From positions 1-64,000 of the forward strand of contig MU005997.1 in the NCBI GenBank assembly GCA_010093745.1: DNA of 64,000 nt. Direction: 5' to 3'. The notes under the pieces are model-generated. The model ran no database searches. It was not told the DNA's origin and was given only the letters and a program-made list of their open reading frames with translations. The stretch is from Piedraia hortae CBS 480.64. Its lineage: Eukaryota. The position numbers and the translations under genes are program-made. This document shows, in pieces, positions 18,448 to 53,721 of this stretch (position 1 is the first letter of the stretch; every line of letters begins with the position of its first letter).

Positions 18448-19518
18448 CTAGCTCCGAGAAATGTAATCCTCTATCATTTGTGCAATCTCAATATGCCCAT
18501 GTTCGACTGCCACTTGTTGCGGAGTTAGGCCGCAACCGTTTTTGAGGCTTGTATTGGCACCGCGTTCTAATAAACGAGCCACCGACCGCGTGTGTCCACA
18601 AACAGCGGCACAATGTAGTGGCGTGCTACCGTCTGCCATCAAGTGGTCAACGTCGGCTCCCGCGTCCAGCAATATGTCGAGAACATCAGGCCTTTGGGGC
18701 CAAACGGTCCAGTGAATGGCCGCAGCGCCTATAAACGAAATGATGGATAGGTTCGGCTCGTGGCTCAGGATTAGCTTGACCATCTCCTTCGACGCGTATC
18801 GAACGGCGTACATCAGTGGAGTGGTGTTGTAAGCGTTCAAACTGTCTACATTGGAGCCCATTTTTAGTAACCATCTCACCAATTCGATGTTGTTCTCCCG
18901 CACAGCCATGTGGAGCGGCGAGCAAGTCGAGATGTGGCTGCTTACGTTAAGGGTGGCGCCATACAGAAGCAGCAGCTCCATTGCATCCTTGTGTCCATGT
19001 TTTGCAGCTCCAGCCAAGGGGCATAATCGCCCGGATTTGGCCGGTCTAAAAGAATCATATAGCCCCGTGACGATGGTGCCAGAGTCAACGGGCGCCCCTT
19101 GACGCACAAGCATGTCTATGCGATAAAGATCGCCCTCGCAGGCGGCTTCGTACAGTTCATCGGCCATCCGGTTCTTGGCTTTGGCAGAAAGCTTTCCAAA
19201 TGAGGACCTGAAGGCACCTGGGGACGTTGGAGGGCTCCATGATGATGTGGCTTCGTGGAAAGAGGGTACTCGCCAGTTTTCGGTGGGACTGCCAATACCG
19301 CTGTCGACTCTGGCTGAGCGCGGCGTCGCAGGCATCGAGACAGACATGCGGCGGCGGTCGGCAGCGTCTGGATGCCAGAGAGCGGTGGGCGCATCGGCTC
19401 TCAAATGCCGGGCACGTGGAGACCGGGGGTGCAGATCGACATCCAGACGCAGATGACTGGCATCACCATACGCGAAACGCGGGCGCGATCCTGGGCCATG
19501 TTGCTCAGCGTCGCCCAT
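18448..19518 (-). CDS. Ankyrin-repeat protein
   Basis: Multiple ankyrin motifs (SPLHMAV, TPLMYAV, TPLHCAA, TPQQVAV) after a disordered N-terminus. Confidence 0.85.
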   Translation of the reverse strand: MGDAEQHGPGSRPRFAYGDASHLRLDVDLHPRSPRARHLRADAPTALWHPDAADRRRMSVSMPATPRSARVDSGIGSPTENWRVPSFHEATSSWSPPTSPGAFRSSFGKLSAKAKNRMADELYEAACEGDLYRIDMLVRQGAPVDSGTIVTGLYDSFRPAKSGRLCPLAGAAKHGHKDAMELLLLYGATLNVSSHISTCSPLHMAVRENNIELVRWLLKMGSNVDSLNAYNTTPLMYAVRYASKEMVKLILSHEPNLSIISFIGAAAIHWTVWPQRPDVLDILLDAGADVDHLMADGSTPLHCAAVCGHTRSVARLLERGANTSLKNGCGLTPQQVAVEHGHIEIAQMIEDYISRS

Positions 19519-19875
19519 TCCGATGAGGGTTGAACAAGGAGCTTGTACTAGTCCCTTTGACTTCCAAGACCCACGTCCCTAGCGAGCCCAGACCGTTCAT
19601 GGCCTGAGCAACAAGGAATGCGGCCCCATGTCTCTCCTGTGTCCCCGTCAGCTAAAGCGGTGTGCGCCGGCTTTTCAAACACATTTCAATTGGCCGTAGC
19701 AGTGGCTTCGTCAAGCTGATCAGGTCGCACTATCTGCGGAGATGTCCGACGCACATTGCCGCTTTAACGAGGTTCATCTTGTTGTTGCGGACCGCGCTAA
19801 CCCCTTTGGGCTTTAAACATAAAGCAGGTGGGGCACCTCTGCGTCATCACCCCAATGGATACATAAGACACCACA

Positions 19876-20563
19876 ATGAACAGACTGTTTGGAGCAAAGA
19901 GCGCCACGCCCAAGCCCACGCTGAGCAGTGCTATCAGTAATGTTGGTTGAGCCCTCGTAGTTTGTAGCATGTAGGCTGAACTTCCAGGTCGATAGCCGTA
20001 TTGAGAGTATCGATGTCAAGTTGGCCAAGCTGAATGCCGAACTCTCCACCTACCAGCAACGCCTGGCTCGGATGCGCGATGGCCCCGGCAAGAACGCCAT
20101 CAAGCAAAAGGCCATCAAAGTCTTGCAGCAGCGCAAACAGTACGAGGCGCAAAAGGACCAGCTGCAACAGCAGTCGTGGAACATGGAGCAGGCCGCAATG
20201 ATGCAGGACAACCTTGCAAACACAATGGCCACGGTCGACGCTATGAAAACTACGCAAAAGTCCCTGCGGAAGCAATACGGCAAGGTCAGCATTGACCAGA
20301 TTGAGCGTATGCAGGACGATATGGCTGACCTCATGGATGTCGGAAATGAGATCCAGGCGAGCATCAGTCGAAGCTATGACGTTCCGGAGGATGTAGACGA
20401 GGCCGAGCTGGATGCTGAACTCGAAGCTCTGGGCGAGGAAGTCGAGCTTGGAGGTTTAGGCATGGACGATGCTGTCCCCAGCTACCTGCAGGACATTACC
20501 GCGGCGCCCTCGTTCATAGATGAAGCACCGGACCACACTGGAGTGAAGGAGGCGGCAGCATAA
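19876..20563 (+). CDS. VPS60: ESCRT-III subunit Vps60/CHMP5 (Snf7 family), 2 exons
   Basis: MNRLFGAKSATPKPTLSSAISN|VDSRIESIDVK..QQQSWNMEQA..SRSYDVPEDVDEAELDAEL. Intron ~19942-19988. Confidence 0.92.
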
Positions 20564-20849
20564 TGTTTCATGCTGGAGCCATTGAGAAAGCAATGAATCC
20601 TTTGGCGAGCGCCACGAACATCCTACCATAACGCGCTTATAATCACTCTACCACTTCATGAAACAAAGATTCTTCTGCAGTGTTTTAGTGCCTGTGTGAA
20701 GCCCCGCCAGATCGGTCAAGTGCGCCGGGCCGAGCCGTTTCTGCTGGAGCCTTTACACTGCATTTCCACGTCAATCTGGGGCCTCTTCTCTTCTTTTCGT
20801 TTCCACACAACAACTCATCCAAGGGTAGGTAATCTCCTTATGTCAATGC

Positions 20850-20932
20850 ATGATGAATACACAGCTGGCACCAGGCCGAGAGACTTGTACTCCTATAATG
20901 CGGAAAAGCTGGAGGCTCTGCCTCACCTCTGA
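20850..20932 (+). ncRNA. Putative box C/D snoRNA (18S rRNA 2'-O-methylation guide) in the AHA1 5'UTR intron
   Basis: Box C ATGATGA 20850-20856, antisense GCTGGCACCAG(G) 20864-20875 followed by D'-like CCGA 20876-20879, box D CTGA 20929-20932. Lies inside a GTAGGT(20825)..ACTAAT..TAG(20984) intron. Confidence 0.72.
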
Positions 20933-20991
20933 CCTCAAATCTTGCAATCTTTCCTGTTTTCCAGGCACAGACTAATCAGCATAGGCTCAAA

Positions 20992-22033
20992 ATGGTGTTG
21001 CACAACCCCAACAACTGGCATTGGGTCAATAAAGATGTCTCTTCCTGGACTAACGACTATCTGAGCAAAGATCTTGTAGGCCTCAAAGCCGACGGAGATG
21101 ATGGCACTCACGTCGAAGTCAGCAAATTGCTCAGCATGGACGGCGATGTGGATGTGTCACAGCGTAAAGGCAAGGTTATTACCATCTTTGATGTACGGTT
21201 GCAGCTTGAATGGACGGGAACGCTTCCAGGCGAGAAGGAAGACGACGTCAGCGGTACCATAACCATTCCGGAAGTCGCACACGACACGGATGAGGATGAG
21301 TATGTTGTATGTCTCGGATATCCCGAGGCTGAAGGGAGGATGCTAATTGGTACAGTTCGAGGTAGAAATATACTCTTCGGCCTCGTCAAAGGAACCGGCA
21401 AAGGATCTCGTGCGCAAAGCTCTGACACCGCAAATCCGTAAGCGACTACAGATGCTGGCACCAGCGTTGATATCCGAGCATGGCAAGGATCTTCAGCACC
21501 CGCCCGGTACGGATCCGTCAGCCAACTTCGCAAAGTCTACTGTTTTGCAAAGCTCATCGGTGGCAAAGTCTGGCAACAGGCCAGCTGGCAAGACTGAAAC
21601 GACCTCCTCGGACAATGTCAATGTTACTAAATTCTCCGATACGCAGGAATTCCGCACAACTGCGGAGCAATTGTTTCAAACTTTTACAGACCCGCAAAGG
21701 ATCGCGGCGTTTACCCGAACGCCTCCTACCGTTTTTGAAGGGGCAAAGGAAGGCGCCAAGTTTGAGATCTTCGGAGGCAACGTCTCAGGATCTTTTGTCA
21801 CTCTGGACAAACCAACTCGCATTGATCAAAAGTGGCGTCTAGCACAATGGCCTTCTGGCCATTACAGCCTCCTGAAGCTCAAATTTGAGCAAAACGACGT
21901 TGACGGCGTGACCGTTATGCGCGTTGACTGGGAAGGTGTGCCCGTTGGCGAGGAGGAAACCACCAAACGCAACTGGAATGACTATTATGTACGCAGCATC
22001 AAGACCACGTTTGGTTTTGGCACAGTGCTGTGA
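20992..22033 (+). CDS. AHA1: Hsp90 co-chaperone Aha1, 2 coding exons
   Basis: MVLHNPNNWHWVNKD, GDVDVSQRKGKVITIFD, C-terminal AHSA1 domain ending YYVRSIKTTFGFGTVL. Intron ~21307-21355. Confidence 0.95.
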
Positions 22034-22403
22034 AGCCAGTGCGGTAGAAGCGTAGTTTAGTGTAAGCGTTACGTTTTGATAGATGTCATTGATGTCACCA
22101 TAGGGAAATGACTCTCCTAACACGGCGAGTACGACTTGTTCGTATTCGAGCTGTACTGTTAAGGCTTCAATATTGGGCTGAAAAGTGCAGTACGATGTCC
22201 AGCTCATCTCGTTTCAAATGCCACAAGCCTGGTATAGCTAGAGCAGCCTGGATGGAAAAAGCTGTTGAAGTTGATGTGTGCTAACTGAGTCATGGAGAGA
22301 TTACATACCGCGCCGCTGTTAAAGTTTTCACAGCCACAGGCAGATGAAGATGGCTTCAATATTCATGAATCATTATCAAAACTATCTCATCAACTTATCT
22401 GCA

Positions 22404-23063
22404 TCACATTGTCAGCCTATTCATAAGGCCAACTACATCATCGTCCTCGTCCCAACTTTGTGCCTTACAATGCCCATTTTTGCACCCTTCACATAGCGCT
22501 GACTTATGCGGCTGGGTATTCCGATGAGAGTACACTAGCTCCTCCAGATTTTTGACACCCGCCCACTTCTTCAGTCGATACACCACCCTCTCCACATACA
22601 CGTTCTCATCAATCGTTGGGCGCCCGAGGGTCATGCACTTCTTGCACCTCTGATTGTAAACCCTCGCATTATACCTCTCGTTGGGATACAACCTAATGGT
22701 GATAGCCACTTTCCCACTCGACCATCCCGAGGACCCGCACGAGGGATTTGTACACTCAAATTTTCCCACGATATTCGTATCATAATACTTTATGACCCCG
22801 CGGGGATTATCATTCGGGTTGAAAGTAAAATCTAGATTGTCCTCCTCAAGGAGGTCGGATACGGCGCGATGGAAATTCGAATACATGGCCCATGCTTTCG
22901 ACTTCATTGTGAGTGTACCTTTTGGAGAAGGGGGGTGGACAGGTATTCATATAATGGCGGGTTTGAAGTTGCATGAATGCGTTTCGCAACAGTGCATGTT
23001 TCCCGTTTGTTGGATGCAGGAATGCGTACCTCGATAAGGCTTTGACTTTGTGGTACTTGCCAT
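22404..23063 (-). CDS. 3CxxC-type zinc-binding domain protein
   Basis: GKFECTNPSC..GWSSGKVAITIR..YNARVYNQRCKKC..PHKSALCEGCKNGHC. Probable short first exon MASTTKSKPYR from 23063 joined in frame via intron 22919-23029; otherwise start at 22907. Confidence 0.82.
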
Positions 23064-52725: not shown

Positions 52726-53721
52726 CTACTCTCTTCTTAAACTAAAGAGAAAAATAACCACCCACATCACAAGGTTGACGAAGACGAGAATGGTGTCAGT
52801 CCAGGTCAAAGCAATGAAACTCCCTCCAGCCTTGGCTGAGATACCAAACTCCTTGCCGAATTTGTTGACCAGATGCTCAGCCCCCACAGCCACGCCATGA
52901 GTTGCCGTCGATGCCAGAGCGAGGATAATGAGCGCCAGAGCGTTGGTCACTACATTAGCCATGGCAGGCCAGTGGCTCCTGAACGTCACTAGACCGACGA
53001 TTGCCAGCAACAAAGCCATGCCAACCAATGCAATGGCCATGACGTACAAGATCTTGGACACCTCAACGAGGTTGATATCCGAGTGGCGCGAACACTTGGA
53101 GGTGTGCCTCTTGGACGGCACCATGGGGTCGTCGCTGGCGGTTACATTGGTACCGTTGGGGTACTGGTATCTCCCCTCACACGTCGCCATTGGGTAGATG
53201 GAGTAGAATCCTTGCAGATGCAATTGTTGGACGGCACCACGGTAAGCGTCATCGATGACCTCCATAACTTTGGACTCCATTGTCGAACCGGCGCTCGCAA
53301 CGACACTCGCGCCGGCGGATTTTGCGGATTGCACCTCCGAGCTCGCGGCGCTTATGTGACTAGCGGCGGCGGCAGTCAGTTGGGCCGCATGGCTGGAGAC
53401 GGCATCGGGAATGATTGTTGGAAAGGCTCGCGATTGCTTGAGGTCTCGCTTCGCGAGGAAGTCGTTCACTTTGGTGGTGAGGTTTTGAACTTCGCCGTCG
53501 ATGGTGTCTAGCAGTGGCTCGCCGATGCGGGTTGTGTTGAGGGTGAAGATGGCATATTTCTCCAGGACGCCGGGCCTGTGGCCGGCGTACATGCACAGCA
53601 AGGACAGGATCCAGGCTACGGCAGTGATAAGGATGGAGAGGAATGTGAGGATTTGGACGATTCCCGGCTTGGGAAAGCGGCGGGTTTGGGGCTTCTTCTC
53701 GGAGCGCTTGGTGGGTAACAT
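52726..53721 (-). CDS. SUR7/PalI family tetraspan membrane protein
   Basis: TM-LCMYAG..YAIFTLNTTRIG, extracellular FYSIYPMATCEG..C motif, three C-terminal transmembrane helices. Confidence 0.8.
   Translation of the reverse strand: MLPTKRSEKKPQTRRFPKPGIVQILTFLSILITAVAWILSLLCMYAGHRPGVLEKYAIFTLNTTRIGEPLLDTIDGEVQNLTTKVNDFLAKRDLKQSRAFPTIIPDAVSSHAAQLTAAAASHISAASSEVQSAKSAGASVVASAGSTMESKVMEVIDDAYRGAVQQLHLQGFYSIYPMATCEGRYQYPNGTNVTASDDPMVPSKRHTSKCSRHSDINLVEVSKILYVMAIALVGMALLLAIVGLVTFRSHWPAMANVVTNALALIILALASTATHGVAVGAEHLVNKFGKEFGISAKAGGSFIALTWTDTILVFVNLVMWVVIFLFSLRRE

Follow-up and report, generated by a model that had tools for sequence, protein, structure and literature searches.

The window analysed here, 64,000 nucleotides of contig MU005997.1 of Piedraia hortae CBS 480.64, very probably carries, inside intron 1 of AHA1, located in the 5'UTR, a box C/D snoRNA with a single guide, a member of the Afu-190 / CD43 / snR80 group, whose predicted target is the equivalent of yeast G562 in 18S rRNA. 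The helix-18 guide RNA is real, and its RNA family, its target and its intronic mode are already known. The core finding is ordinary because the RNA, the target and the intronic hosting have all been published, and because most of the intronic C/D snoRNAs of S. pombe are hosted likewise: according to the accessible text of one survey, only 7 of 40 reside in coding-region introns, and the others are found in UTR introns or non-coding hosts (PMC4138321). What seems to be undescribed is the fixed AHA1 home of this snoRNA across moulds. A search of the literature available outside subscription found no publication naming AHA1 as the host of the RNA family, and the accessible parts of PMC8216456 and PMC12309372 do not mention AHA1.

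Rfam finds a single match in the window, Afu_190 (RF01498), which aligns over model positions 1-100 with 20848-20933 on the + strand and scores 38.8 bits against a gathering cut-off of 35. In a genome-wide search, the same locus scored 25.9 bits, below the cut-off, and no second match was detected elsewhere in the genome. The RNA, with a predicted length of about 85-90 nt, had been assigned to the box C/D class by the first-pass annotation, and the comparison with Rfam which that annotation proposed agrees. The coordinates that it gave for box C (ATGATGA, 20850..20856, recovered both by alignment and by a position check), for box D (CTGA, 20929..20932) and for the guide followed by CCGA are all correct; box C', ATGCGGA at 20898..20904, was overlooked. 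This last box is degenerate, and its assignment is inferred from the alignment. The D' guide, a complement of 18S helix 18, occupies 20864..20875 and is followed by box D' (CCGA, 20876..20879), for which the relatives have CCTA, CCGA, CTTA or CTGA. Thus, the RNA possesses the terminal boxes C and D as well as the internal boxes D' and C' (the latter degenerate and placed by alignment) that characterize the box C/D guides. The region folds no better than its shuffled versions (z 1.0), as expected for this class. The window has one instance of the combination of box C, an 11-nt complement of 18S and box D, and of 100 Markov resamples, 2 contain it. The guide 11-mer by itself has 15 matches in the genome, and the 13 loci outside the AHA1 gene all lack an Rfam match. 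The 11-mer occurs again on the same strand at 21454-21464, within the AHA1 coding region; this second copy is absent in 34 of 34 relatives and is probably due to chance.

The gene downstream of the intron is identified as AHA1 by two Pfam domains (Aha1_N, E 6e-33, and AHSA1, E 5e-22), and its closest protein relatives come from filamentous ascomycetes, with dothideomycetes ranking first. According to the domain matches and a transcript-like contig, the coding region spans 20992..22033 on the + strand, from the ATG at 20992, with a 49-nt intron at 21307-21355, and the contig places the poly(A) at 22108. This poly(A)-tailed contig of 1963 nt, from run X1, corresponds to 19912-22108 of the window and omits three segments of 46, 160 and 49 nt, all of them GT..AG; a pattern of three canonical introns plus a poly(A) end is that expected from an mRNA. 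The 160-nt gap coincides exactly with 20825-20984, ends 7 nt before the AHA1 ATG and is about 3.4 times as long as its two neighbours (46 and 49 nt). A 5'UTR intron of about 160 nt, some three times the local norm, had been predicted at this place, and the junction proposed there as a check is the one that the contig skips. Within this intron, the 5' splice site GTAGGT starts at 20825, the branch point ACTAAT lies at 20971-76 and the 3' splice site is at 20984. In the window, the junction is seen in a single contig from a single run (X1) whose status as RNA is a guess, and relatives are spliced at the same place. The RNA lies inside a spliced host intron, as in the intron-encoded class of snoRNAs.

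Upstream of the intron, the segment 20564..20824 on the + strand, past the stop codon of a VPS60/Snf7-family frame (19961..20563, +, identified by a protein domain match and included in the contig), corresponds to the AHA1 promoter and a presumed non-coding first exon. Three upstream ATGs in this spacer open frames of 8-13 codons only; an N-terminal extension of AHA1 and a long uORF were rejected. The single spliced contig covers both the VPS60/Snf7 gene and AHA1 (19912-22108), which points to a compact genome in which UTRs overlap or transcription reads through. The neighbouring genes at 22404-22946 and 18448-19578, both on the - strand, encode, respectively, a 3CxxC zinc-ribbon protein and an ankyrin-repeat protein.

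The rDNA of P. hortae is not included in the genome assembly, where searches found no match for 18S, for 5.8S or for the helix-18 motif, and the viral contigs yielded none either. As a proxy, we used a full-length 18S sequence (L138), recognized with Rfam in a contaminant contig of bacterial assemblies, which we take to be of fungal type on the strength of a primer motif. The proxy 18S sequences were fetched via the target motif, so the conservation of that motif is not a question that they address. Against L138, the guide forms 11 Watson-Crick pairs and one G-U pair (20864-74 plus G20875), and this helix-18 site is its best ungapped site among 3590 nt of rDNA (18S, 5.8S and 1282 nt from the start of the large subunit RNA). 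In the D'+5 position stands C20871, whose partner in L138 is G558 (context UGG*UG), and the U that follows G558 fits the GmU context of yeast G562. A complement of the required 10-21 nt in the +5 register is thus present, as judged against the proxy 18S, and the predicted duplex reaches -25.0 kcal/mol, compared with -14.2 kcal/mol at the G1271-type site. The pairing described initially, 11 nt plus a G-U with the D'+5 base at the yeast G562-equivalent, is borne out against L138, and these observations support the prediction that the guide directs 2'-O-methylation of the G562-equivalent of 18S. For the 14 nt preceding box D, no good site was found in the same 3590 nt, and the segment is unconserved, in line with the early remark that it has no recognizable target; on these two grounds, a D-box guide was rejected.

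Two short complements to the same rRNA region had been put forward as possible accessory pairing, of which one holds up. GACTTG belongs to a conserved 11-nt element between D' and C' (20882..20892), a candidate for extra pairing with 18S 545-555 and/or 510-517 (L138 numbering). The two best sites for this element in the 3590 nt of rDNA are both located just 5' of the target, namely, 545-555 (9 pairs, one G-U, one mismatch) and 510-517 (8 perfect pairs). Among 150 shuffled sequences, one reached such a score nearby and none did so twice, a lenient control given that the 11-mer was picked after the match was seen. The motif TGTAC is kept in 38 of 39 snoRNA copies, and its conserved A is mismatched at 545-555 and paired at 510-517; because this A pairs only with the second site, the comparison favours the use of 510-517, or of both sites, by the D'-C' element. 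The second complement, AGCTGGA, matches an 18S 7-mer (578-584) in reverse complement and is present in one of the 33 scored copies, that of the window itself; accordingly, it was rejected as unconserved. In Saccharomycotina, GUACUC is shared by 23 of 25 snR40 rows (counted by eye) in the alignment of van Nues 2011 (PMC3116282), which, in its accessible part, includes no filamentous fungi and assigns the motif to the G1271 region, at a time when Gm562 was not yet known. The conserved GUACUC element can now be read as docking near G562, which is a testable proposition.

The association of this RNA with AHA1 extends far beyond P. hortae. From an AHA1 N-terminal alignment scan that yielded 270 relatives, the best 80 loci were kept, and among these, the guide is present in all 48 loci with at least 320 nt of upstream sequence. 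The exact 11-mer is found in 37 of 38 distinct related copies, and 16 of the 20 relative loci tested pass the Afu_190 cut-off in Rfam, with scores of 40.3-74.5 bits versus 38.8 in the window. In an alignment of 24 hand-picked sequences, the splice donor, the core of box C, the guide, TTGTAC and box D are invariant. Conservation of the boxes and the guide upstream of AHA1 orthologs, another of the checks suggested by the first-pass annotation, is thus evident. By automatic calls in the 30 of 38 relatives with both ends found, the intron is 182-247 nt long. The distance from box D to the branch point has a median of 51 nt in 36 of the 38 relatives (IQR 49-53, range 47-80) and is 38 nt in the window; about 50 nt is the optimum for splicing-linked assembly. 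Of five pairs tried, two in which a transcript-like contig could be compared with a close genomic relative (L032 vs L035 and L030 vs L049) were informative and showed exactly the AHA1 leader intron to be missing, and three were uninformative. Among 21 contigs whose AHA1 frame is uninterrupted, six keep the snoRNA (L020, L022, L029, L035, L070 and L094) and may represent retained introns or genomic DNA. One copy, at L060:1630-1730, has a changed box C and a single mismatch in the guide, lacks box D, gives no Rfam match and is apparently decaying, with the splice signals and an HSE still in place.

On sequence comparison, the window RNA is closer to Afu-190, CD43 and S. pombe snR80 than to yeast snR40. 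Afu-190 of A. fumigatus is documented by 8 clones and a northern band, with 18S Gm557 as the predicted target (Jochl 2008, PMC2377427). It resembles the window RNA in the match to the whole covariance model, in the target and in the Aha1 flank but is listed as intergenic, between Afu4g11320 and Afu4g11330, with a length of 107-110 nt, and the accessible text names neither a host gene nor a UTR intron (PMC2377427). Because AFUA_4G11330 is an Aha1-domain protein (PMC4159865, as far as its accessible text goes), Afu-190 adjoins the A. fumigatus Aha1 gene. CD43 of N. crassa, an intronic RNA of 96 nt detected by northern and RT, with 18S Gm559 as the target and a host gene left unnamed in the accessible text, is described as homologous to S. 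pombe snR80 (Liu 2009, PMC2780460) and shares with the window RNA the guide, the D' position, the D'-C' element and intronic hosting. For S. pombe snR80, Gm565 is reported to be methylated, and this RNA is distinct from S. pombe snR40, which is linked to Gm1288 (Diao 2014, PMC4138321); it has the guide core in common with the window RNA and forms a 10-pair duplex but is housed in the non-coding polycistronic cluster VII, not in AHA1 (PMC4138321). In S. cerevisiae, Gm562 depends on snR40, the D' guide of which also serves G1271, and the D guide serves 25S U898 (Yang 2015, PMC4344503, accessible part). The window RNA and snR40 share the D' guide for 18S G562 and GUACUC between D' and C', whereas the extra U in the guide, the service to G1271 and the D guide for 25S U898 are features of snR40; in the window RNA, the rDNA sites and the unconserved segment give no indication of a D guide for U898.

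These comparisons bear on the possibility that the window RNA is a dual-target guide in the manner of yeast snR40, such that one D' guide also methylates the G1271-equivalent, which we consider quite unlikely. Canzler 2018 groups these RNAs as the family snR40/CD_43, with the 562 interaction predicted in 71 organisms and the 18S-1271 interaction in 67 of the 90 members (PMC5824354, accessible part), yeast snR40 uses a single guide for both sites, and a duplex of -14.2 kcal/mol could form in the window RNA. However, the additional U found in the yeast snR40 guide is missing from the window guide, which makes just 6 contiguous pairs at the G1271-type site, in a weak, interrupted duplex, and S. 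pombe keeps separate snR40 and snR80. Furthermore, a C/D-like RNA at L142:1501-1578 (G000:C14, about 53438-53515, +), between splice signals in a LisH/CTLH gene, fits the G1271-equivalent in the D'+5 register with 12 contiguous pairs (2 of them G-U) and -20.0 kcal/mol, compared with -12.6 kcal/mol at the 562 site. A pattern search for G1271-type guides gave 10 matches in the genome, this RNA being one of them. The L142 RNA has no Rfam match of its own and, by eye, has in common with N. crassa CD55 a variant box C, the guide and a variant box D, so that it resembles a CD55 homologue of the G1271 type; CD55 itself was published as an orphan said to be restricted to Neurospora. The G1271 site is thus probably served by a separate RNA. 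The initial proposal of a dedicated helix-18 guide gains indirect support from the difference between the two duplex energies, from the L142 RNA and from the lack of a conserved D guide. The presence of two RNAs in S. pombe as well suggests that separate guides may be the ancestral state, with the snR40 of yeast perhaps arising by merger.

A different question is why the host is conserved. With what we take to be the three-unit HSE consensus as the search pattern, 24 of the 29 distinct long-flank relatives show a motif with at most one mismatch at 60-350 nt before the guide, versus 1.7 expected from shuffles, and 6 show a perfect one, versus 0.06 expected, the relatives not being independent. 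The window contains no three-unit HSE with at most one mismatch. This makes a response of the AHA1 promoter to Hsf1 probable in most moulds, though not evident in the P. hortae window. A stretch at 20742-20754 loosely resembles by eye the HSE of the relatives, with 3 mismatches and at about the expected distance, and is possibly an eroded element. The early suggestion that production of the RNA is tied to transcription of a chaperone gene thus survives in its physical part, the intron location supporting such a tie to AHA1 transcription; regulatory coupling to stress finds no support in the window. That an Hsf1-driven AHA1 promoter raises the snoRNA in heat and renders methylation of the G562-equivalent conditional, and that the host is conserved for this reason, is, in our estimate, rather unlikely: the motif in the relatives and the retention of the host across diverged AHA1 loci speak for it, but the window lacks the motif, the relatives are not independent, and yeast Gm sites show no partial methylation, with snR40 deletion causing no phenotype at 19-37 C (PMC4344503, accessible part). 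Besides, most A. fumigatus snoRNAs are evenly expressed according to the accessible text of PMC2377427, and intron hosts are often kept by descent, as in an example in the accessible part of PMC8216456. A broader scheme, with two guides in filamentous ascomycetes, the helix-18 guide under an AHA1 HSE promoter and CD55 for G1271, and with methylation rising with Hsf1 in most moulds and weakened in P. hortae by loss of the element, appears unlikely; if true, it would connect the chaperone response directly with ribosome modification. It is very unlikely that the snoRNA derives in part from VPS60 read-through or from a promoter of its own instead of the AHA1 pre-mRNA. The contig is unbroken over VPS60 and AHA1, the spacer is just about 260 nt long, and Afu-190, at 107-110 nt, was taken to be intergenic, but a two-gene contig does not show a single transcript, the splice signals around the RNA are conserved, and the intron stops immediately before the AHA1 ATG. 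Moreover, because VPS60 is next to AHA1 in 0 of 77 related loci (many with short flanks), the intron goes with AHA1. Finally, the window copy could be a decaying relic without activity, considering that it has the lowest Rfam score and the shortest intron of the set and that the L060 relative has apparently suffered decay in all of box C, the guide and box D. Nevertheless, the window copy retains every box as well as an intact guide and accessory element, the locus is the sole match in the genome, and the intron is still roughly threefold the length of those next to it, which makes a relic extremely improbable.

Under the preferred reading, that of a single-guide snoRNA released from the AHA1 leader intron, the core proteins Snu13, Nop56/58 and Nop1 would assemble on the RNA during splicing, as in the general pathway, and the debranched lariat would be trimmed to about 85-90 nt. 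Nop1 would then 2'-O-methylate the G562-equivalent, while the D'-C' element would dock on the immediate 5' side of the target. Counting against this reading are the low Rfam score of the window copy and the short distance, 38 nt, between its box D and the branch point. AHA1 would serve as a stable, well-expressed host, and stress regulation would be a by-product, perhaps lost in P. hortae. AHA1 can accordingly be named as the conserved host, and Afu-190 shifts from 'intergenic' to a leader intron. In moulds, deleting AHA1 or exchanging its promoter may eliminate a guide for rRNA methylation at the same time. The orphan CD55 gains a candidate target. Close to its presumptive homologue, the same LisH/CTLH gene contains a second intronic C/D-like RNA (L142:1138-1209, +) that by eye resembles N. 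crassa CD14, and a divergent neighbouring gene contains a below-threshold match of the Afu_263/snR60 type (L142:8-88, -).
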